NCBI GenBank assembly: GCA_041650935.1
Contig: JBAZKH010000001.1
Location: forward strand, 139,945-203,944
Origin: Candidatus Omnitrophota bacterium
Lineage (GTDB): Bacteria; Omnitrophota; Gorgyraeia; 2-01-FULL-45-10
Length of the DNA: 64,000 bases
Direction: 5' to 3'
The notes under the pieces were generated by a model. That model was not told the origin of the DNA and did not search any database. It saw only the letters and a list, made by a program, of their open reading frames with translations. The translations under genes and the position numbers were made by a program. Below, piece by piece: positions 45,422 through 55,589 of the stretch. The first letter of the stretch is position 1; each line of letters opens with the position of its first letter.

Positions 45422-47743
45422 ATGATATTTAGAGCGGCGGTGCTGATAATGCTGATGCCCATCTCCGTCTTTGCGGCTCAGACTATGGAGGAAGGCGATT
45501 TCCTGGTCGCCAGGAAGGCTTTCAAGGACGGCCTCTACGACCTGGCCGGAGAGAGGCTCGAATCGATATTGCATAATTATCCCAACACGCCGCGCATATA
45601 TGAAGCGCATTTACTTCTCGGGAAGTCGTATCTGCGCCAGAACAACTTTTCGCGGGCGTCCTACGAATTCGAAGTTGTTATCAACGCGCCTGCCGGCAGC
45701 GATTCGCAGGACGCGGCTCTCTACTGGCTCGGCGAAATCTGCCTGAAGAACGGTGATTATAAGAGGGCGCTCGAACTCTACCAGCGCATCATGGATGAAT
45801 TCACGTCGTCTTTTTACATGAGCCATGCCCTCTACTCGAAAGGCTGGTGTTATTACAAGCTGGGACTCCTCGACGACGCCGTAACCTGTTTTAAAGAGGC
45901 CGTAGCGAAGTATCCACTCGAGGAAGCGGCGCCCGAGGCGCAGTTCCGGATAGGAGAATGCAAATATCTCGTGGCGGATTATACCGGCGCCGAAACTGAG
46001 CTTAAAAAGTTTATAGAGGAATTTCCGGTCTCCGAGAAGACGGCGGCGGCGTACTACCTGATGGGCGAGGTGAATTTTTTCCAGGCCAAATATAAAGACG
46101 CGGTTACTTATTTCCAGCGTGCCCTGGCAATTTCTCCGGAAGCCGCATGGTCATCTTTTGCCGCGTACCGCATGGCCGAGTCATTTTTCGGCGCGGGCGA
46201 TTACGCGGCAAGCATCAAAGAGTACAGGAGATGCCTGGCAAAGCGTAGTAACGGTCTTCTCTCAGGCGCGTCTTTAACCGGACTTGGCCGGGCCTGCGAG
46301 CGGACGGGTTCTACGGCTGAAGCCGTCAGGGCGTATGATGAAGTTATAGCGATGAGGTCGAAGAACGAAGCGGCGGCAGAGGCTTATTATAGAAAGGCGG
46401 CTATTCTATCGGCCGCGCGGAAATATGACGATGCCGAAAGGCTATGCAGGGACGGTATAGAAAAATTTCCTGGAGCCAAATATGCCGACGAACTTCATTA
46501 TGAGCTTGGCCGCATATATTCGCTGACCGGCAGGCGCGATGACGCGATACGGGAATTCCGGTGGGTCCAGGATAATTCGGGTGATCCGGCCCTTGCCGCA
46601 AACGCGATTGCCGGGATAGGAGAGATATATTACACCGCCAAAAAATTTAAGAGCGCGATGGAAAGTTATGACGCTATTTTGAGCAAGTATCCCGACAGCT
46701 CCGTTGCCGGCCGTGCCCAGGTTCAGGTTGGCAATGTATTTTTCGCGACGGATAATTTCGACCAGGCGGTCCTGGCATATCAGAGCGCGGTTACCAACTT
46801 TCCGGATACGGCGCTGCGCGCAGACGTTACGTTTTTACTGGGCGCGGCAAGCTTCAGGAAGGGTGACTTCAGGAGCGCTGCCGACTACTTGAAAAATTTC
46901 CTGGAATCGCCTGCCGGAGGCGAAACGGAGGAGCTTGCTAAATTGTACCTTGCAGATTCATTGTATTACACCGGTGATTATGCGGCGGCCATCCCTATTT
47001 ATAAGGCTATAAACAACGGCGCATTGAAGGCCATGGCGGATTATCAGGCCGGCTGGTGTTACTATAATACGGGCAGGGAGGCCGAAGCCGTCGAAGAATT
47101 TTCGCGATTTTCCAAAAATTATGCGTCCTCGCCCCTGGCCGCGGATGCGAGGTTCTGGCTGGGTGAATATTACAGCTCAAAGGGAAAATATGACAAGGCC
47201 AGGGAATCCTATTATTCGATTCCGATAGATTTTCCGTCGAGCGACCTTGCCGGCAGGGCCCTTTACCAGGCGGCCCTGACACTGCAGGACGAGGGAAAAT
47301 CCGAAGAGGCTGCGGGCAAGTTCGCCGAGCTGGCAGATAAATTCCCGGGATCCGACTTTGCTAGGAGCGGTTATAGACGGATGGCAAAATTCAGGCAGGA
47401 CAGGAAAGATTTCGACGGCGCGGTAGAGTGCCTTAAAAAGGCGCTCGGCGCCGGGAATAACGAGGCGAATGCGCAGGTTCAGTACGAGATATCGGAAATT
47501 TTAGAGGCGAAAGGAGACCTGCTTAAGGCGGCAGAAGAGTACCTCAAGGTTCCGCAGCTTTATTCCAACGGGGCTTTCTGGTGCGTCAGGGCACAATTTA
47601 AGGCCGCGCAGATATTCGAGCGAAACGGCCGTCCGGAAGAGGCGCGGCGGCTGTATGAAAAACTTGCGCGGATGGATGTCGAAGAGTCCGCTTTCGCGCA
47701 TGACCGCCTCGAATGGTTGAAGCGGCAGAGGCGGAAGCAGTAA
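45422..47743 (+). CDS. large periplasmic TPR-repeat protein (Tol-Pal associated, YbgF/CpoB-like repeats)
   Basis: Signal peptide plus many TPR-type repeats (...A.YWLGE.Y...G.Y..A...Y...). Confidence 0.75.
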   Translation: MIFRAAVLIMLMPISVFAAQTMEEGDFLVARKAFKDGLYDLAGERLESILHNYPNTPRIYEAHLLLGKSYLRQNNFSRASYEFEVVINAPAGSDSQDAALYWLGEICLKNGDYKRALELYQRIMDEFTSSFYMSHALYSKGWCYYKLGLLDDAVTCFKEAVAKYPLEEAAPEAQFRIGECKYLVADYTGAETELKKFIEEFPVSEKTAAAYYLMGEVNFFQAKYKDAVTYFQRALAISPEAAWSSFAAYRMAESFFGAGDYAASIKEYRRCLAKRSNGLLSGASLTGLGRACERTGSTAEAVRAYDEVIAMRSKNEAAAEAYYRKAAILSAARKYDDAERLCRDGIEKFPGAKYADELHYELGRIYSLTGRRDDAIREFRWVQDNSGDPALAANAIAGIGEIYYTAKKFKSAMESYDAILSKYPDSSVAGRAQVQVGNVFFATDNFDQAVLAYQSAVTNFPDTALRADVTFLLGAASFRKGDFRSAADYLKNFLESPAGGETEELAKLYLADSLYYTGDYAAAIPIYKAINNGALKAMADYQAGWCYYNTGREAEAVEEFSRFSKNYASSPLAADARFWLGEYYSSKGKYDKARESYYSIPIDFPSSDLAGRALYQAALTLQDEGKSEEAAGKFAELADKFPGSDFARSGYRRMAKFRQDRKDFDGAVECLKKALGAGNNEANAQVQYEISEILEAKGDLLKAAEEYLKVPQLYSNGAFWCVRAQFKAAQIFERNGRPEEARRLYEKLARMDVEESAFAHDRLEWLKRQRRKQ

Positions 47744-47848
47744 TGACGAATGTCAAATTTCAAAATCCAAATCAATCATTTAAAACCAAATATTTTAATG
47801 TTGGTCATTTAAAGATTGATTTGTCATTTGAAATTTAATAGTAACGCG
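47741..47848 (+). repeat. AT-rich palindromic element, family A copy 3
   Basis: TAATGACGAATGTCAAATTTCAAAATCCAAATCAATCATTTAAAA...TCATTTAAAGATTGATTTGTCATTTGAAATTT. Confidence 0.7.
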
Positions 47849-47868
47849 CATTTTAAGAGGAGGATAAT

Positions 47869-48501
47869 ATGTGGGATATAATCCAAAAAGGCGGACCGAT
47901 GATGTACCTGATAATACTGTCGTCCATACTGGCGTTCGGCGTCGTTATAGACAGGATATATAATTTACGCCGGGCCAGGATAGACGCGGATAAATTTATG
48001 GATGAAGTAACCGCGGTCCTCAAAAGGAATAAGATCATAGAGTCGATCGAGATGTGCAATAAGACGCCCGGGCCCATCGCGCATATAGTAAAAGCCGGTA
48101 TACTGAAACATGACCGGTCCAAGCCGGAGATAAAGGAAGCCGTTGACGAAGCGGCGCAGCTCGAGATACCGAGGCTCGAAAAACACCTGCCGATCCTGGC
48201 GACGATAGCGCACATAACGCCTCTCCTCGGTCTCCTTGGCACCGTTGCGGGCATGATAAAGTCGTTCCAGGTTATTCAGGCAAAGGCGCTCGCCCTTACG
48301 CCCGTAAACCCGGGGGACCTCGCGGGCGGTATATGGGAAGCGCTTCTTTCGACGGTAGCCGGCCTCGCCGTAGCTATTCCCACTTACGTTGCTTATAATT
48401 ATCTGACGAGCCAGATAGACGCGCTTGTCTTCGATATGGAAAGGAGCGCGACGGACCTGGTGAACCTGCTCTCGTCCAGGAGAGATACTTATGAGGTTTA
48501 A
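47869..48501 (+). CDS. tolQ: MotA/TolQ/ExbB proton-channel protein
   Basis: 210 aa with three TM segments and the TolQ/ExbB-type core. Confidence 0.85.
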   Translation: MWDIIQKGGPMMYLIILSSILAFGVVIDRIYNLRRARIDADKFMDEVTAVLKRNKIIESIEMCNKTPGPIAHIVKAGILKHDRSKPEIKEAVDEAAQLEIPRLEKHLPILATIAHITPLLGLLGTVAGMIKSFQVIQAKALALTPVNPGDLAGGIWEALLSTVAGLAVAIPTYVAYNYLTSQIDALVFDMERSATDLVNLLSSRRDTYEV

Positions 48502-48883
48502 AAGGCGGTTGAGGATAGAGAAGGGGCTGATAGAATTGACGCCGCTTGTAAATGTCTTCTTTCTCCTATTCGTATTCTTCGCGTTTACGTCGAGCTTTAT
48601 ATTCCAGCCCGGTATAACGGTGAACCTGCCGAAGGCGGTTACGAGCGAGGTTGTACAGCAGGAGAGCGCCGTCATAATAGTTACAAAATACGACGCGATA
48701 TACTTGAATGAACGGGAGATGTCGCGGGACGAGCTGGCCTCGAGCCTGCGCCTCATGGCAAAGAATAATATGCCGCTGCTAATCAAGGCGGACAACCACG
48801 CTTCGCTGGGGAAGGTTGTTGAAATTTGGGATATGTGCAGGGCCGAAGGCGTATCGCAGGCCAGCATTGCGACCAACAAATAG
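48491..48883 (+). CDS. tolR: ExbD/TolR biopolymer transport protein
   Basis: 130 aa. N-terminal TM (LTPLVNVFFLLFVFF) and ExbD fold. Confidence 0.85.
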   Translation: MRFKRRLRIEKGLIELTPLVNVFFLLFVFFAFTSSFIFQPGITVNLPKAVTSEVVQQESAVIIVTKYDAIYLNEREMSRDELASSLRLMAKNNMPLLIKADNHASLGKVVEIWDMCRAEGVSQASIATNK

Positions 48884-48891
48884 GTTGAATC

Positions 48892-49305
48892 ATGGCAGCG
48901 GCAAAGATGTTGCAGAAATTTTTCAGGAATGATGCTCACAGGATCTTTGCGATCGCCATTCTCATATCTTTGGCGTGGCATCTTTTCTGGATGGCTACGA
49001 TAACCATAGTCTCCGGGCAGCCGGGCGCTTCTCAGGTGAAATTTTCGCGGGTATCGTTTCTTGGGCCTCTGCTCGGAAGCGGGACCATGGAGCTTCAGGC
49101 CAGGCCGAAAGAGCGTTCATTCCTGGAAAAGAGATATTCCGCGGCGGTAAGCCGCTTATCGATTAAAGGTCCCGCGGTCCCGGGCGCACCGGCCGATAAA
49201 TATGAAAATGACGTCTATGCCGGCCATTCGCGGGATGAACGGATTATTGCTTTGATAGCCGACGCCCTTGGCAGTGAAAAGCTCGAACCGTCTCGCGAAG
49301 AATAG
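48892..49305 (+). CDS. hypothetical single-pass membrane protein (occupies the TolA/TonB position but lacks a C-terminal domain)
   Basis: 137 aa with TM IFAIAILISLAWHLFWMATITIV. Confidence 0.5.
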   Translation: MAAAKMLQKFFRNDAHRIFAIAILISLAWHLFWMATITIVSGQPGASQVKFSRVSFLGPLLGSGTMELQARPKERSFLEKRYSAAVSRLSIKGPAVPGAPADKYENDVYAGHSRDERIIALIADALGSEKLEPSREE

Positions 49306-49316
49306 TTCCCGAGGCC

Positions 49317-49571
49317 TTGACTATTGATATAATTATGATAAAATTAGATATAGGAACATTAATATTCTTCTATACATTATTTTCTGCTATACTTCTTTTG
49401 GTAATATGGACGTTATTTGCATATAAAAGGCCGAAAGGCCCGATAGCTAGAGAGATAGACTATACCTGGAAATGCTCGGTCTGTTTCCATTCTTATATCG
49501 ATTCGAAGCATGACGAAATATCTGTTTGTCCTTTATGCGGTAGCTACAACAAGAAGTCTGAAATAAGGTAA
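49317..49571 (+). CDS. small membrane protein with C-terminal CxxC...CxxC zinc ribbon
   Basis: 84 aa. TM LIFFYTLFSAILLLVIWTLF, then CSVC...CPLC. Confidence 0.45.
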   Translation: MTIDIIMIKLDIGTLIFFYTLFSAILLLVIWTLFAYKRPKGPIAREIDYTWKCSVCFHSYIDSKHDEISVCPLCGSYNKKSEIR

Positions 49572-49584
49572 TCCCTTGGCGCTG

Positions 49585-49815
49585 GAGTGAGAGTGTTGCA
49601 CCTCGGGATGATTTGCAAGAGTGAGATAAGGGCAAATCACGGTGCGATTTGTCTAAAGTTAGATACAAATTAAGGTAGCCCCTCGCTGCCGGAGTTAGAC
49701 AGTGGCAGCTCGGGACGATTTGTCAGACTTAGATACAATGAGGTAGCCCCTCGGTGCGGGACTTAGATTGTTGCACCTCGGGACGATTTGTCAGAGTTAG
49801 ATAATAACAAATCGG
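49585..49815 (+). repeat. ~68-bp tandem repeat, about 3.5 copies
   Basis: Repeated units ...TTAGATACAA(T)GAGGTAGCCCCTCG(G/C)TGC(G/C)GGA(C/G)TTAGA.(A)GT(T/G)GCACCTCGGGACGATTTGTCAGA(C/G).... Confidence 0.8.
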
Positions 49816-49825
49816 AGGTGGTAAA

Positions 49826-50026
49826 ATGATTACCGAAATAGGTATTACTGCTGGTGATATATGGCATTATCTTGATGTACACGGGAAGAGCCCTCTTTCG
49901 CAGATCGTTAAAGATATCGATACCGAAAAAGAGAGAGTTCTTATGAGCATAGGTTGGCTCGCCAGAGAGGGGCACGTCATCGTTGAAAAGTCCGGCCAGG
50001 ATTATCATATATATCTGAGGAGATAG
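49826..50026 (+). CDS. small winged-helix protein (DUF2582-like)
   Basis: 66 aa MITEIGITAGDIWHYL...SIGWLAREGHV. SD GGAGGTGG upstream. Confidence 0.55.
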   Translation: MITEIGITAGDIWHYLDVHGKSPLSQIVKDIDTEKERVLMSIGWLAREGHVIVEKSGQDYHIYLRR

Positions 50027-50037
50027 GGGGGGTAGGC

Positions 50038-50310
50038 ATGGAAGAGAAGAAGAGCCTGAGAGACGAAGAACAGGTACCGATAGTTGCTCCTTTAAAGGTA
50101 TTGGTCCAGAAGACTATAAATAAGCGTTTTGGGTGGTGGTCTGCCGTTGTCCTGCTCGAAAGCTACGGCAGAAAACAAGTCTGCTTCTACCTATGGCAGA
50201 AGAAAGATACCGGCGGCTGGAAAAGAAAACAGAAATTCGCCGTTCATAACCAGGAAGACTGGGAGCTCATACAGAACGCTGTCAGCGGGATGATAAGCGA
50301 ATTAACCTGA
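50038..50310 (+). CDS. hypothetical protein
   Basis: 90-aa ORF 11 nt after the previous gene. No recognisable motif. Confidence 0.4.
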   Translation: MEEKKSLRDEEQVPIVAPLKVLVQKTINKRFGWWSAVVLLESYGRKQVCFYLWQKKDTGGWKRKQKFAVHNQEDWELIQNAVSGMISELT

Positions 50311-50319
50311 CATTATCCC

Positions 50320-50670
50320 ATGCCGACCAGCAGAAGACCAAAATCGTACATACCCCGCGATTTTTGTATAATCCTAGTTACTTGCCAATCCAAAATAGAA
50401 GCCAGGAAGATCGCCTCGTCGCTTTTAAAGAAGCGGCTTGCCGCGTGCGTTAATATTATGCCGGGTGTCGATTCCAGGTTTTGGTGGAAAGGAAATATAG
50501 ATAGATCCGGTGAAGTGCTTCTTACGGCGAAGTCGGTGCGCCGTAATTTTATGCGTATAGAAAAAGCGGTGAGACGTCTCCATAGTTATGATGTGCCGGA
50601 GATAATCGCTATTCCATTAATTGCCGGCAGCGCGGATTATCTGAGATGGATAGCTTGTAATGTCGAATGA
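50320..50670 (+). CDS. cutA: divalent-cation tolerance protein CutA
   Basis: CutA1 fold signature ILVTCQSKIEARKIASSLLKKRLAACVNI...VPEIIAIPL. Confidence 0.8.
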   Translation: MPTSRRPKSYIPRDFCIILVTCQSKIEARKIASSLLKKRLAACVNIMPGVDSRFWWKGNIDRSGEVLLTAKSVRRNFMRIEKAVRRLHSYDVPEIIAIPLIAGSADYLRWIACNVE

Positions 50671-50765
50671 CAAAACCCAAATGACAAATAAATCTTTAAA
50701 TGACCAACATTAAAATATTTGGTTTTAAATGATTGGTTTGGATTTTGAAATTTGTCGTTTATGAT
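50655..50765 (+). repeat. AT-rich palindromic element, family A copy 4 (contains the cutA stop; abuts tRNA-Ala)
   Basis: AATGTCGAATGACAAAACCCAAATGACAAATAAATCTTTAAATGA...TTTAAATGATTGGTTTGGATTTTGAAATTTGTCG. Confidence 0.7.
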
Positions 50766-50772
50766 GTTCTTA

Positions 50773-50848
50773 GGGGCAGTAGCTCAGCTGGGAGAGCACC
50801 ACGTTCGCAACGTGGGGGTCGTGGGTTCGAATCCCATCTGCTCCACCA
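50773..50848 (+). tRNA. tRNA-Ala (anticodon CGC)
   Basis: Cloverleaf GGGGCAG/CTGCTCC acceptor stem with G3:U70. D-arm GCTC...GAGC. Anticodon stem CCACG/CGTGG with loop TTCGCAA. T-arm GTGGG TTCGAAT CCCAT. Encoded CCA. Confidence 0.9.
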
Positions 50849-51070
50849 TGTACCACTCGCAACAACTGGCTATAGATATTGCTCGGGTACATGGCGCAGC
50901 CATGTACCATATGCAGTCGCAGCGTGTAGTGATACATGCCCTGTACCTGAAAAATGCCGAAGGCATTTTGAATGGTATAGGGCCCTAAACCATTCACTGC
51001 GTTCAGGTTTGGGGCACAGCAAACACTCGGGTTTTGCCTAGCGCCCGAGCGGCAGTATTAGCGTTGGTGA

Positions 51071-52564
51071 ATGGTACTGGGAAAAAATAAAAAGCTTATG
51101 AAAACACAAATCATACTTGCAGCCTTTACCCTGCTTCTCACCTCCTCCGCCTCTGCCGCCGACGTGAAGACGGCGGATCTTGCCGGCACGTGGTATCCGC
51201 GGGACAAAACAGAGCTGACCGCTTTGCTTCAGGGTTATCTTGATTCAGCCGATCCGCAAAAGATAGACGGAGAGGTCTTCGCGATCATTTCACCGCACGC
51301 TGGATATCAGTTTTCCGGGCCGGTTGCCGCCTATGGTTATAAGGCCGTCCGGGATAAAGGCGTTAAGACGGTAATCGTTATAGGTTTTAGCCATAAGAAA
51401 CGGTTTGACGGTATATCCGTGTATGCCGGTGGAGCGTGGAGAACGCCTCTGGGCGATATCGCGATCGACGAAGCGTTTGCAAACGAGCTGATATCGAAGA
51501 ACAAGAGGATATCTTTTAACCCCGGTCTCTTCGAAGGTGAAAATTCGGTCGAGATGCAAATTCCGTTCATCCAGCTTGCCCTGAAAGGCGCCAGGATCGT
51601 TCCCGTTGCTTTTGGGACCCAGGAATATTCCGATGCCGAGATATTGGCCGGGGCCCTGGCGTCTCTGCTTAAAGATAGGCGCGATTGCCTTATAGTCGCT
51701 TCCACGGATCTTTCGCATTACCATCCTTATGACCGGGCACTGCGTATTGATAACGAGCTTATATCTATATTGCAAAAGATGCGGCCGCGGGACCTGTACG
51801 ATGGGGCCCTGGCGGGAAGGTGCGAGCTCTGCGGTTCTATGCCGGTTGTCGCGACGCTCGCCGCGGCACAAAAGGCGGGATTCGACAGGATCGAAATCCT
51901 GAAGTACGCAAATTCAGGGGACACATCCGGGGACAGGAGCAAAGTTGTCGGGTATTTGAGCGCGGCGATCTATAAAGGGCAAGCGCAAAAGAAAGAGGGA
52001 GCGGCCATGTTTAACGAATCCCAGAAAAAAAAGCTACTTCAGATTGCCAGAGAATCGCTGACGGCTTATGTTAATGGCGGTAAGCGAAAGGTATTTTCCG
52101 AGACGGACCCTCTATTGAACCAGGATCTAGGGGCGTTCGTGACATTGCATGAAAAGGGCGAACTCAGGGGATGCATCGGCAGCATATCCGGCCATGGCCC
52201 GCTATATCAGACTGTAGCGGGTATGGCGATAGAGGCAGCAACAGGCGATCCGCGTTTTCCCGTTCTTTCAAAGGAAGAGATAGATAAGGTCGACATAGAA
52301 ATATCCGTACTTACGCCGCTCCAAAAAGTTTCCGGTTACGCGGACGTTAAAATTCCCGGAAACGGTGTTTTAATAAGGCGCGGAACGAGAAGCGGTGTTT
52401 TCCTGCCGCAGGTTGCGGCCGAGACAGGATGGAACAGGGACGAGTTTTTGTCCTACCTGTGCGCGCACAAGGCCGGATTGCCGCAGGATGCCTGGAAAGA
52501 TCCGGACACGGAAATTTATATTTTTTCGGCAGAGGTATTTGGAGAGAAAGGGGGAGGCAGGTGA
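51071..52564 (+). CDS. fusion protein: Memo1-like (AmmeMemoRadiSam protein B-like) + AMMECR1 domain, with N-terminal signal peptide
   Basis: N-terminal half has ...FAIISPHAGYQFSGPVAAYGY.... C-terminal half has the AMMECR1 core ...GAFVTLHEKGELRGCIGSISG.... Signal peptide MKTQIILAAFTLLLTSSASAADV. Confidence 0.75.
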   Translation: MVLGKNKKLMKTQIILAAFTLLLTSSASAADVKTADLAGTWYPRDKTELTALLQGYLDSADPQKIDGEVFAIISPHAGYQFSGPVAAYGYKAVRDKGVKTVIVIGFSHKKRFDGISVYAGGAWRTPLGDIAIDEAFANELISKNKRISFNPGLFEGENSVEMQIPFIQLALKGARIVPVAFGTQEYSDAEILAGALASLLKDRRDCLIVASTDLSHYHPYDRALRIDNELISILQKMRPRDLYDGALAGRCELCGSMPVVATLAAAQKAGFDRIEILKYANSGDTSGDRSKVVGYLSAAIYKGQAQKKEGAAMFNESQKKKLLQIARESLTAYVNGGKRKVFSETDPLLNQDLGAFVTLHEKGELRGCIGSISGHGPLYQTVAGMAIEAATGDPRFPVLSKEEIDKVDIEISVLTPLQKVSGYADVKIPGNGVLIRRGTRSGVFLPQVAAETGWNRDEFLSYLCAHKAGLPQDAWKDPDTEIYIFSAEVFGEKGGGR

Positions 52565-53481
52565 AGAAGAAAATTTTAATAATAGTTATAGCCGTAGTTG
52601 CTGCCGCGCTGACAATAGCATTTATCATTCATAAGCCTTCTTCGGAAGCCGGGAAACGGGCGGGAAAGACGATTGCCTCCGGGAACCCTGAAAAAGAAAA
52701 GGGTGCGGGACAGGCGAAAAAATCGTTCCGTAAAGGAATGGGAGGGATCAGCGTAAGCATAAAAAATTCGAGCGGTAAGACCCAATATCTGAGATTAAAG
52801 GCTTTTAGCGTGGAAGGAAAACGGTCCAGTTCGTTTGCGGCCACGTTTGGATCGGGACGCATGCAGGAATTACCGCCGGGTAAATACGACATCGAGATAG
52901 ATACTGTGCCCGCGCTGATATATAAAAATATAGAGGTGAAAGAAGGCGTGGAGACGGTTGAAGATCTCGGCGCGATTACGGGCGCGCTTACAGTTAAGGC
53001 GCTCAATTCCAAAAAGAAGGAAACGCCTTTACCGGTAAAAATTATCCGCGCGAAATCCGATATTGCGGTCGCGGTTATTACGACAAACAGGCCTGCCGAG
53101 ATAATGCCCGGTATATACGATATCGATATAGAGACTATGCCCAAACAATCGAAGAGCGACGTTAAAATAGAGAGCGGTAAAGAGACGGTTGTGGATATGG
53201 GCGTGGTATCCGGGTCCGTAACGGTTAAGGCTGTCGACGAGAACGGCAAAGAAGCGCGCCTGAATGTCCGGATAAAAAATGCGGCTAACAATGTGATAGC
53301 GGCTTCTGCGATTACGGGCCGGCCGGTCGAGATAACGCCGGGAGAGTATGATATAGAGATTTTGTCGTCGCCTTCTCAGGCGCGGAAGGGCGTGAAAGTT
53401 ACGGCGGGCGAGGATACGGTCATAGATTTTTCTATTCAATCAACTCCGCCGCGGCCGGCTGCTCCGGCCAGGAAGAGATAA
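52561..53481 (+). CDS. membrane-anchored protein with three ~50-aa beta-rich repeats (PEGA/CarboxypepD_reg-like)
   Basis: GTG start overlapping the previous stop. TM IIVIAVVAAALTIAFII. Repeats around LPPGKYDIEIDT / IMPGIYDIDIET / ITPGEYDIEILS. Pro-rich C-terminus. Confidence 0.6.
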   Translation: MKKKILIIVIAVVAAALTIAFIIHKPSSEAGKRAGKTIASGNPEKEKGAGQAKKSFRKGMGGISVSIKNSSGKTQYLRLKAFSVEGKRSSSFAATFGSGRMQELPPGKYDIEIDTVPALIYKNIEVKEGVETVEDLGAITGALTVKALNSKKKETPLPVKIIRAKSDIAVAVITTNRPAEIMPGIYDIDIETMPKQSKSDVKIESGKETVVDMGVVSGSVTVKAVDENGKEARLNVRIKNAANNVIAASAITGRPVEITPGEYDIEILSSPSQARKGVKVTAGEDTVIDFSIQSTPPRPAAPARKR

Positions 53482-53536: not shown

Positions 53537-54268
53537 GTGTCAAGATTCTTTATCTGCCCCGAAGCTGTAAAAGGGGAGCGTATAGTCATAAACGGTAAAG
53601 AGGCGCATCATATCCTTGACGTGATGCGCTTGAAGGTATCCGATAGCGTTGTTACCTTTGACGGCACCGGAAAAGAATACTCCGGTATAATTAAAAACGT
53701 ATCCCGCAATTCTCTTACGGTAGAGATAACCGCAACCCGCACGCTGTCCGGGAAGGGACAGCCGCGGATAATACTTATCCAGGCGTTGCCCAGAAAAGCT
53801 AAGATGGATTATATAGTCGAAAAAGCGACGGAGCTTGGCGTCCATGCGATAGTTCCGGTGATCGCCGAAAGGACCGTGCCGGTATGGAATGAGGAGAAGA
53901 TGCGCGCGCATGTCCAGAGATGGACCAAGATAGCGACAGCGGCGGCTAAACAATGCGGCAGGCTGGATATCCCGCAGGTTTTTGCTCTGGCAAAATTCAA
54001 GGATGCTTTGGAGAAACTCGCCGGCGTTAACCTGAAGCTGATAGCGGTTTTAAGCGAAGAAGCCGTTCCGTTAAAAGAGGTCATAAGAGGCTCGGGCGCC
54101 GGGCAGATCGCGATAGCCATAGGGCCGGAGGGAGACTTTACGGCCGGCGAAGCGGAATACGCCAGGAGCCTTGCCTTTAAAGCGGTGGATCTCGGCCCCA
54201 GGGTTTTAAAGAGCGACACGGCGGGCCTTGCCCTTCTCTCGATATTAAACTATGAGCTGTCAAACTGA
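53537..54268 (+). CDS. rsmE: 16S rRNA (uracil1498-N3)-methyltransferase
   Basis: RsmE family N-terminus MSRFFICPEAVKGERIVINGKEAHHILDVMRLKVSD. SPOUT C-terminal domain. Confidence 0.85.
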   Translation: MSRFFICPEAVKGERIVINGKEAHHILDVMRLKVSDSVVTFDGTGKEYSGIIKNVSRNSLTVEITATRTLSGKGQPRIILIQALPRKAKMDYIVEKATELGVHAIVPVIAERTVPVWNEEKMRAHVQRWTKIATAAAKQCGRLDIPQVFALAKFKDALEKLAGVNLKLIAVLSEEAVPLKEVIRGSGAGQIAIAIGPEGDFTAGEAEYARSLAFKAVDLGPRVLKSDTAGLALLSILNYELSN

Positions 54269-55589
54269 TTCCTTAAAGAGATTCTATATATATACCCTTG
54301 GCTGCAAGGTGAACCAATACGAGTCGCAGGCCATGAGGGAGATATTGCTCAGGTCCGGTTTCAAAGAGTGCCTGGCAAAAGAGATAGCGGATATCTACAT
54401 AATAAATACATGCACCGTTACGCATCATGCGGACAAGGAATCGCGCTACCTGGTCGGGATGTTCCACAGGATAAATCCAAAAGCGAAGATCGTTGTTGCC
54501 GGTTGTTATGTGGAGCGGAATGCCGACGAGATTTCATTTTTGCCGGGAGTGGCCCATATCGTGAAAAATGAGGAAAAGGGGCGGATCGCGGAGATTCTCA
54601 ACGAACAACGCACAACGAACAATGAACAACGAAACAGTCAGTCTGAGTTTATAATCACCGGCTTCAAAGGCCGCACGAAAGCCTTCGTCAAGATACAGGA
54701 CGGCTGTGAAAACAGGTGCTCATACTGCAAGGTCCCGCTTGTCAGGGGAGCGCTTAAGTCAAAGCCTCTGACGAGCATAGTCGAAGAGGCCGGCCGTCTC
54801 GTGTCGTCGGGTTTTAAAGAGCTTGTGCTCGTCGGCATCTGCCTCGGAGCGTGGGGCAAGGAGATAGCGGCAGGCACGGGCCCCGGGAGCGCAGGTGTTG
54901 TCGAAGTTCTCAAAGCGCTGGTTAAGATAGGCGGCGATTTTCGTATCCGCTTAAGTTCGATAGAGCCGCGATATATTACTGACGAATTGATAGAATTCAT
55001 AGCCGCAAATAAAAAAATATGTAAGCACCTGCACATACCGCTCCAATCAGGAGACGACGAAACGTTGAAGCGCATGAACAGGCCGTACACGGCGGTGGAA
55101 TATTACCAGATGGTCGGCCGGCTGAGACGCGTCATGCCCGATATAGCGTTATCTACGGATGTCATGGTTGGATTTCCCGGGGAGGGCAGGGCCAATTTTA
55201 CAAGAACGCGCGATTTTGTAAAATCGATTGTGCCGGCCCGGATGCATATATTTACATACAGCAAAAGAGACGGTACGGAGGCGTGCAATATGTCCGGAGA
55301 GATGCCGGAAGGGGTATTGAAGAAAAGGTATTACGACCTTAAGACGGCGGCCCTGATGTCATCCTATATCTACCGCGCTAATTTTGTGGACAGGCCCCTC
55401 GAAGTGCTCGTCGAGTCGAAGCGCGACAGGCAATCTGGCTTTTTGACGGGATACTCCGATAATTATATAAAGGTAATCTTTGATGGTAGCGATGATGTTA
55501 TGGGAAAGGTCGTGATCGTAAAGATAGAAGAGATGACGATGGGCTATACGATAGGCAGAATTTCCCAGGCTGACCAAAAAATTACTTGA
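54252..55589 (+). CDS. MiaB/MtaB-family radical-SAM tRNA methylthiotransferase
   Basis: N-terminal MTTase domain TLGCKVNQYESQAM. Radical SAM CxxxCxxC (CENRCSYC). TRAM-like C-terminus. Confidence 0.85.
   Translation: MSCQTDSLKRFYIYTLGCKVNQYESQAMREILLRSGFKECLAKEIADIYIINTCTVTHHADKESRYLVGMFHRINPKAKIVVAGCYVERNADEISFLPGVAHIVKNEEKGRIAEILNEQRTTNNEQRNSQSEFIITGFKGRTKAFVKIQDGCENRCSYCKVPLVRGALKSKPLTSIVEEAGRLVSSGFKELVLVGICLGAWGKEIAAGTGPGSAGVVEVLKALVKIGGDFRIRLSSIEPRYITDELIEFIAANKKICKHLHIPLQSGDDETLKRMNRPYTAVEYYQMVGRLRRVMPDIALSTDVMVGFPGEGRANFTRTRDFVKSIVPARMHIFTYSKRDGTEACNMSGEMPEGVLKKRYYDLKTAALMSSYIYRANFVDRPLEVLVESKRDRQSGFLTGYSDNYIKVIFDGSDDVMGKVVIVKIEEMTMGYTIGRISQADQKIT

Follow-up and report, generated by a model that had tools for sequence, protein, structure and literature searches.

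Proteins B and A of the AmmeMemoRadiSam system (TIGR04336 and TIGR04335), which belong to the Memo and AMMECR1 families, are grouped with a radical S-adenosylmethionine (SAM) enzyme, TIGR04337. Both families are conserved from archaea through to humans and have been linked to human disease, and to our knowledge neither has an established biochemical activity. Human MEMO1 is a cytosolic single-domain protein, with no radical SAM partner at hand, and the archaeal AMMECR1 proteins (PH0010, 1vaj; MM0484, 1zq7; ST0229, 1wsc) stand alone and lack a signal peptide. In this study, we analysed a 64,000-nucleotide stretch of DNA from a Candidatus Omnitrophota bacterium (contig JBAZKH010000001.1, positions 139,945 to 203,944; hereafter the window, meaning this whole 64-kb stretch) that carries a gene in which a Memo domain is covalently joined to an AMMECR1 domain behind a predicted cleavable signal for the general secretory (Sec) pathway. 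Both family models score far above their cut-offs on this B-A fusion, all family-invariant residues are in place, and in sister lineages the orthologues at this locus lie directly downstream of a TIGR04337 gene. The window differs from the described system in that no TIGR04337 gene lies within 64 kb and the fusion gene is coupled instead to the gene for an Omnitrophota-specific beta-sandwich membrane protein. The explanation that best accounts for these observations, and that taken as a whole we consider rather probable, is that of a Sec-exported, periplasmic, bifunctional Memo-AMMECR1 enzyme with an envelope substrate, whose radical SAM gene was lost from the locus and which probably operates independently of radical SAM chemistry.

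The open reading frame (ORF) over the fusion gene spans 51071..52564 (+, 497 residues; coordinates are positions in the window and + denotes the forward strand). We set the start at ATG 51098 because homologue alignments begin at that methionine, as does the gene model of an NCBI protein, P0001, that is 100% identical to the fusion (488 residues, on a 710,442-bp contig; recorded as 'MAG: AmmeMemoRadiSam system protein B [Candidatus Omnitrophota bacterium]'). The hydrophobic N-terminus is the same with either start. Pfam recognizes Memo (PF01875, residues 35-298, E 6.6e-64, 216.1 bits against a cut-off of 27) and AMMECR1 (PF01871, residues 323-490, E 9.6e-54, 181.8 bits) in the same chain. The NCBIfam models for protein B (TIGR04336, 265.7 bits, cut-off 26) and protein A (TIGR04335, 174.9 bits, cut-off 99) do likewise, in agreement with an earlier, sequence-only reading of this DNA that had described a B-then-A fusion in a single polypeptide. 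A PDB sequence search returned the same two families (MEMO1 and PH0010/AMMECR1). The AlphaFold2 model of the fusion has a mean predicted local distance difference test (pLDDT) score of 95.6, and Foldseek places its N-terminal domain on human MEMO1 (7l5c; template-modelling score 0.83, 26% identity; other MEMO1 structures are 3bcz and the iron-bound 7kq8, 7l5c being copper-bound) and its C-terminal domain on Pyrococcus PH0010 (1vaj; score 0.82, 38% identity).

Residue conservation was read, like the model, from a 146-sequence alignment. In the Memo domain, all sequences share H67, H99, D204 and H207, and at least 90% of them keep C245; we take these residues to match H49, H81, D189, H192 and C244 of MEMO1, so that both proteins have His/His/Asp/His/Cys at the same metal-site positions. 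In the AMMECR1 domain, G358, C359 and G361 of the LRGCIG motif (ELRGCIGS in the fusion), together with D384 and R386, are invariant, and the LRGCIG and DPRF motifs are shared with the archaeal proteins. Given this conservation, the fusion protein looks catalytically intact, as judged from its residues. The Memo domain also has a distant likeness in fold to the LigB-type (class III) extradiol dioxygenases, including 2-aminophenol 1,6-dioxygenase and DesB (Foldseek E 1e-8, template-modelling score ~0.6), and a weak Pfam LigB match is seen in relatives. However, identity is 12-16%, the window protein matches Memo and not LigB, and nothing here points to aromatic ring cleavage.

Comparison of orthologous loci indicates how the window came to differ from its relatives. 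In loci L008, L009 and L010, whose fusions are 46-47% identical to that of the window, the order is tRNA-Ala(cgc) – radical SAM (TIGR04337) – B/A – DsbD_2 (PF13386) – RsmE – MtaB, and the same gene order is found in L011, where no tRNA was detected. The window, L001 and L003 share the order tRNA-Ala(cgc) – B/A – beta-sandwich protein – RsmE – MtaB. Locus L007 reads tRNA-Ala – B/A – RsmE, and L006 reads tRNA-Ala – two small exported proteins (one with FMN_bind) – B/A – RsmE – MtaB. Thus L008, L009 and L010 have the radical SAM and DsbD_2 genes, and the window, L001, L003, L006 and L007 lack them, within a frame of landmarks formed downstream by RsmE (cluster 2, present in 10 loci) and MtaB and upstream by the tRNA. 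The latter had been described as lying directly upstream of the fusion, and it does, ending 249 nt before ATG 51098; the same tRNA-Ala(cgc) precedes either the B-A gene or the radical SAM and B-A pair in L001, L003, L006, L007, L008, L009 and L010. In a neighbour-joining tree of B-A sequences, the window clade (the window, L001, L005 and L003, then L006 and L007) nests among branches linked to radical SAM genes (L009; L008/L010/L011). Since sister Omnitrophota loci keep both genes and the window clade nests among radical SAM-linked sequences, the simplest reading is that the locus lost its radical SAM and DsbD_2 genes on the branch leading to the window. The absence of the radical SAM gene is thus a loss at an orthologous locus and not a general property of exported fusions.

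Within the 64 kb, neither a scan of ORFs of at least 120 residues for the CxxxCxxC motif nor tblastn with three TIGR04337 proteins detected a TIGR04337-type gene, and the window holds no homologue of the radical SAM enzyme, of DsbD_2 or of the Spermine_synth membrane protein described below. A TIGR04337 gene is likewise missing within 10 kb on either side of B-A in L001, L003 and L005. The single CxxxCxxC ORF of at least 120 residues in the window encodes MtaB (TIGR01579, 407.4 bits, cut-off 357). The sequence-only reading had stated that no AmmeMemoRadiSam-type radical SAM gene is adjacent and that the downstream radical SAM protein is an MtaB of a different family, and both statements hold across the window. 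MtaB was rejected as a stand-in for the missing partner, being a typical TIGR01579 enzyme that occupies the same position in loci that also hold the true radical SAM gene. The spacer between the tRNA and the fusion was considered as a decayed radical SAM gene and rejected, as it gave no tblastn signal.

To place the fusion among its relatives, 1.84 billion cluster representatives (50%-identity clusters) were searched exhaustively with phmmer, giving 18,852 matches. The best 150 of these (38-55% identity) are nearly all full-length B-A fusions; most open with a signal peptide or a signal of the lipobox type, and some 20 are clearly cytoplasmic. Scanning one genome per GTDB species yielded 80 loci, to which the window and two earlier loci were added. 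Among the resulting 83 loci, from more than 15 phyla, 61 fusions were classed as exported, 19 as cytoplasmic and three as unclear. The 80-locus scan covered Omnitrophota, Planctomycetota, Desulfobacterota, Nitrospirota, Leptospirales, Zixibacteria, Acidobacteriota, Latescibacterota, Calditrichota, Bacteroidota/Ignavibacteria, Elusimicrobia, Verrucomicrobiota, KSB1 and Cloacimonadota, among others. Exported B-A fusions, whose rarity the sequence-only reading had implied, are thus predominant both in the nearest 150 clusters and across the loci. Exported Memo-AMMECR1 fusions are a large class, and the novelty of the window is modest: it holds one member, without a radical SAM gene and with a new partner. 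No description of an exported AmmeMemoRadiSam system was found in the full-text literature that could be searched, which did not include the 2019 paper on the PCAD-Memo superfamily (Burroughs et al.).

A TIGR04337 gene lies within ~6 kb of the fusion in 38 of the 83 loci, mostly directly upstream, and ten of these genes that were checked scored 356-395 bits (cut-off 220). When the comparison is limited to loci flanked on each side by at least 3 kb of sequence, a radical SAM gene adjoins 24 of 41 exported fusions versus 2 of 11 cytoplasmic ones (Fisher p = 0.04). The earlier contrast between this gene and cytoplasmic proteins encoded beside their activase was therefore misleading, as it is the exported fusions that adjoin a radical SAM gene more often, and the enzymes encoded there themselves have N-termini of the twin-arginine translocation (Tat) type or of the Sec or transmembrane type.

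We examined the N-termini of 34 radical SAM proteins encoded next to exported fusions. Eighteen have a twin-arginine motif followed by a hydrophobic h-region, seven a Sec- or transmembrane-like N-terminus, five no extension and four a partial one, so that 25 of the 34 carry an export signal; by comparison, all three radical SAM proteins adjoining cytoplasmic fusions lack an extension (Fisher p = 0.01). Examples of the motif are DRRSFLQ (L027), DRRGFLK (L029), ERRYFLK (L031), NRRDFIK (L059), DRRTFIK (L067) and NRRQFLQ (L084), with KR variants in Bacteroidota. These assignments rest on motifs such as SRRxFLK and the h-region that follows; the NCBIfam Tat-signal model reported no match on these N-termini. 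Read in this way, the motifs imply Tat export as the predicted route of the radical SAM enzyme. In four of the 18 Tat-type proteins, an extension of ~90 residues between the Tat signal and the radical SAM core contains a CxxCH haem-c motif, which may be a built-in periplasmic electron donor. All Omnitrophota proteins among the 34 belong to the Sec- or transmembrane-like group of seven, and a TIGR04337 profile search of Omnitrophota (best 120 of at least 8000 matching proteins used) found an N-terminal hydrophobic segment in 119 of those 120. Given the export signals on 25 of the 34 enzymes, our data suggest that AmmeMemoRadiSam as a whole can operate in an extracytoplasmic space. The genes that recur next to these are consistent with a redox system outside the cytoplasm; they encode DsbD_2, MauE/DoxX, FMN_bind, a membrane polyferredoxin resembling NapH, a DUF362 protein with a Tat signal and the Spermine_synth membrane protein described below.

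In the explanation we favour, the fusion would be exported by Sec and cut by signal peptidase I (SPase I) after Ala20, releasing into the periplasm or another extracytoplasmic space a mature protein composed of a Memo metal-binding domain, with the LigB/class III dioxygenase fold, and an AMMECR1 domain with its LRGCIG cysteine intact. It would be orthologous to the B/A part of an AmmeMemoRadiSam system that occurs in extracytoplasmic form in many phyla. At the sister Omnitrophota locus, the TIGR04337 enzyme encoded upstream would have its own signal or anchor and the DsbD_2 protein encoded downstream would serve as a thiol or electron conduit, both genes being gone from the locus here. The fusion would then be a metal- and cysteine-dependent enzyme acting on a substrate exposed in the envelope or on the outward-facing side of the inner membrane. 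By analogy with eukaryotic MEMO1 and AMMECR1, it would most probably work without a radical SAM step. In support of a functional enzyme, the invariant catalytic residues are common to the window fusion and its radical SAM-linked relatives. Several points weigh on the other side. The search for a radical SAM gene covers the 64-kb window, to which the best 120 of at least 8000 matches add a weak negative, and such a gene could lie elsewhere in the genome; the B-A tree carries no support values; and the Omnitrophota envelope is taken, by assumption, to be diderm. In addition, five exported fusions (L014, L035, L065, L070 and L073) adjoin a radical SAM enzyme without any N-terminal extension, indicating that B/A and the enzyme need not share a compartment.

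The alternative with the strongest claim is that the fusion is exported and still dependent on radical SAM chemistry, the TIGR04337 gene now lying at another place in the genome and the pathway running as in L008-L011. The retention by the window protein of every residue that is invariant in its radical SAM-linked relatives speaks for this account. Dispersal of the gene is also plausible, given that 17 of the 41 well-flanked exported loci have no adjacent radical SAM gene and that Omnitrophota are rich in TIGR04337 proteins with an N-terminal hydrophobic segment (at least 120 clusters, with the segment in 119 of the 120 listed). Yet no radical SAM homologue occurs in the 64 kb, and none of the best 120 Omnitrophota TIGR04337 clusters is on a contig equal in length to those bearing B-A or beta-sandwich genes of the window clade, including contigs of 710, 733, 328, 242 and 219 kb, a weak negative since at least 8000 proteins matched. 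Moreover, DsbD_2 vanished from the locus along with the radical SAM gene and an unrelated gene stands in its place. We therefore regard relocation of the radical SAM gene as possible, but on the unlikely side.

Export of the fusion itself is predicted from its N-terminus. That N-terminus reads MKTQIILAAFTLLLTSSASA|ADV, the bar marking the predicted cleavage site, and the signal comprises Lys2 in the n-region, an 11-residue h-region (IILAAFTLLLT, mean Kyte-Doolittle hydropathy 2.65-2.9) and Ala18-Ser-Ala20 at positions -3 to -1, followed by Ala21. We assessed conservation of this layout in the closest 120 database proteins (60-76% identity, all with both Pfam domains), counting those in which a 9-residue stretch with a hydropathy of at least 2.0 lies ahead of a small-x-small site whose distance from the conserved DLAGxWYP motif is fixed. 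The layout is kept in 109 of the 120, with Ala at -1 in 112; the other 11 are short gene calls in which part of the c-region is still there (for example 'MTFASDVK', FASDVK and FAAEIK). The first 60 residues of the fusion contain no Cys, which a lipoprotein signal for SPase II would require, and its N-terminus has no RR or KR motif, which a Tat signal would require. With neither a cysteine nor a twin arginine present, the predicted class of the N-terminus is a Sec/SPase I signal, in keeping with the Sec signal peptide that the sequence-only reading had placed ahead of the two domains. More distant relatives in other phyla have SPase I sites or lipobox-like signals.

It is improbable that this N-terminus is an uncleaved signal anchor tethering the fusion to the inner membrane with its domains facing outward. 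Some distant relatives (L065, L070) do have long h-regions and no A-x-A site, and in one relative, P0193, B-A is joined through a transmembrane segment to a membrane domain; the h-region of the fusion, however, is just ~11 residues long and is followed by a canonical A-S-A|A site whose -1 Ala recurs in 112 homologues. Very improbable is a cytoplasmic fusion that starts at a GTG at Val23 (ADVK), with the apparent signal peptide untranslated or an annotation artefact: a GTG codon is present there and 11 homologues are annotated with short N-termini, but these keep pieces of the c-region (FASDVK, FAAEIK) and are hence truncated calls, the n/h/c pattern is kept at the protein level in homologues of 60-76% identity, with lipoboxes in other phyla, and the internal GTG was rejected as a start since the sequence that precedes it, CTCCTCCGCC, contains no Shine-Dalgarno sequence.

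The predicted Sec-exported enzyme has acquired a neighbour that its radical SAM-linked relatives do not have in that position. The GTG start of the downstream gene at 52561 overlaps the TGA stop of the fusion (52562-52564) in a GTGA, as had been noted from the sequence, and is preceded by a strong Shine-Dalgarno sequence, AAGGGGGAGG; this start is conserved in L001 and L003, as is the gene pair, in support of translational coupling. The 306-residue product had been called a three-repeat PEGA-like membrane protein. Its transmembrane helix and three repeats are there, the latter 77 residues long and each with PGxYDI[ED] (at residues 106, 183 and 260), but Pfam PEGA (PF08308) does not match, and the sub-threshold similarities are to DUF2846, NOMO_5th (transthyretin-like) and CarboxypepD_reg. 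The AlphaFold2 model (pLDDT 89.6) has a helix at 2-23, a disordered linker and three all-beta domains, with tandem CnaB/Ig-like pilin and TIE stalks as the best Foldseek matches. The family has 71 homologues, every named one being from Omnitrophota; at least 12 share a contig with a B-A homologue, and the gene is absent from L005-L011. A role as universal partner of exported fusions was rejected on this distribution, confined as it is to a sub-clade of Omnitrophota. Because of the small family, its Omnitrophota membership and its absence from those loci, we conclude that the beta-sandwich protein is a young partner specific to this clade rather than a standard part of the system. It may act as a membrane tether or scaffold for the fusion.

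Taken together, these data allow a broader and more tentative proposal, which we regard as a serious possibility without expecting it to hold in full: in many phyla the whole AmmeMemoRadiSam pathway, including its radical SAM enzyme, is extracytoplasmic, and in the window lineage Memo-AMMECR1 has become independent of radical SAM chemistry, with a newly recruited, membrane-anchored beta-sandwich partner. In such a pathway, the radical SAM enzyme would be exported by Tat, sometimes with a haem-c (CxxCH) module, and in Omnitrophota would be anchored by a Sec-like N-terminus, with electrons presumably fed through the membrane conduits DsbD_2, NapH-like polyferredoxin, FMN_bind and MauE. A class of exported Memo-AMMECR1 proteins puts their chemistry at the cell envelope and thereby narrows the range of candidate substrates, and one orthologous locus with and without the radical SAM gene provides a natural experiment on what each component contributes. 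Radical SAM enzymes are treated as cytoplasmic, as far as we know and in the literature that could be searched for radical SAM together with twin-arginine or periplasm. If TIGR04337 enzymes with Tat signals and haem-c motifs are periplasmic, radical SAM chemistry would for the first time be placed in the periplasm, and the question would arise of how such an enzyme obtains SAM and low-potential electrons outside the cytoplasm. This class-level implication is the interesting lead from the present analysis.

Table 1. Features of the window around the fusion gene (positions in the window) and features of related loci (locus:positions).
Feature	Position	Strand	Remarks
tRNA-Ala (anticodon CGC)	50773..50848	+	ARAGORN; Rfam tRNA 67.4 bits; conserved upstream landmark
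Structured tRNA-to-fusion spacer	50849..51097	+	Slot where sister lineages carry the radical SAM gene
Memo(B)-AMMECR1(A) fusion coding sequence, predicted exported	51098..52564	+	488 residues; in-frame alternative ATG 51071
Sec-type signal peptide MKTQIILAAFTLLLTSSASA, predicted	51098..51157	+	n/h/c features; predicted SPase I cleavage after Ala20 (ASA|AD)
Memo / AmmeMemoRadiSam protein B domain	51173..51964	+	PF01875, TIGR04336; His-His-Asp-His-Cys metal site intact
AMMECR1 / AmmeMemoRadiSam protein A domain	52037..52540	+	PF01871, TIGR04335; LRGCIG cysteine motif
Shine-Dalgarno sequence AAGGGGGAGG of downstream gene	52548..52557	+	Inside the end of the B-A coding sequence; read from sequence
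Translationally coupled gene, 306-residue protein	52561..53481	+	GTGA overlap; transmembrane helix, linker, three ~77-residue beta-sandwich repeats
RsmE-type 16S rRNA methyltransferase	53537..54268	+	Pfam PUA_4 and Methyltrans_RNA; synteny marker, not part of the system
MtaB tRNA methylthiotransferase	54252..55589	+	TIGR01579; only radical SAM enzyme in the window, unrelated to TIGR04337
TIGR04337 enzymes with Tat motif	L027:8671-9924, L029, L030, L031, L059:4447-5586, L067:8854-9954, L084:6694-8238, others
TIGR04337 proteins with Tat motif and CxxCH	L043:4657-5901, L047:8485-9723, L050:8621-9898, L060:4106-5362
Spermine_synth membrane protein	L017:11393-13648; L027:11466-13799; 20 further loci	- (L017, L027)

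Some relatives of the fusion have other architectures. P0187 (838 residues) is a cytoplasmic triple fusion of radical SAM, B and A, in which TIGR04337 scores 387 bits. In P0193 (861 residues, a Logan/NCBI metagenome protein), an N-terminal membrane domain of ~400 residues leads through the transmembrane segment to an outward-facing B-A; this membrane domain weakly matches the AZOBR_p60025 'cell surface glycopolymer formation' family, which hints at an envelope-polymer or lipid-linked substrate.

Other membrane proteins recur beside exported B-A genes. A polytopic protein of 700-850 residues with a central Spermine_synth domain (cluster 1) is encoded next to exported B-A in 22 of the 83 loci, in several phyla, and the L080 protein bears an additional NapH-like Fe-S membrane module. 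Two Omnitrophota loci that lack a radical SAM gene have a gene for a MauE/DoxX-family membrane protein directly upstream of exported B-A (L012:9537-10004 and L016:9499-9942).

The spacer between the tRNA and the fusion is predicted to fold at -105.5 kcal/mol (z = -5.7 versus shuffles) with several hairpins, including GTACATGGC-GCA-GCCATGTAC and AAAATGCC-GAA-GGCATTTT, and its first ~85 nt can be partly aligned with L003. An Rfam scan of the spacer returned the tRNA and no other family, and a promoter and terminator scan around the gene gave no more than shuffled sequences do. Farther upstream, synteny extends over window positions 45422-50670, L001:3857-9731 and L003:2855-8767, in the order TPR protein – ExbB/TolQ – ExbD – TonB-like – small Cys-rich membrane protein – DUF2582 – 90-residue protein – CutA1, with a histone-deacetylase-family gene before CutA1 in L001 and L003 and not in the window. 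The proximity of CutA1 (metal tolerance) to a Memo-type metal-binding protein may be coincidence. Some gene callers stretch the B-A ORF, or call spurious ORFs, through tRNA-Ala ('SSSAGRAPRSQRGG...'), as in the N-terminus of P0120 and the window ORF 50733-51041, and such calls confirm the adjacency of the tRNA to B-A in further metagenomic contigs.

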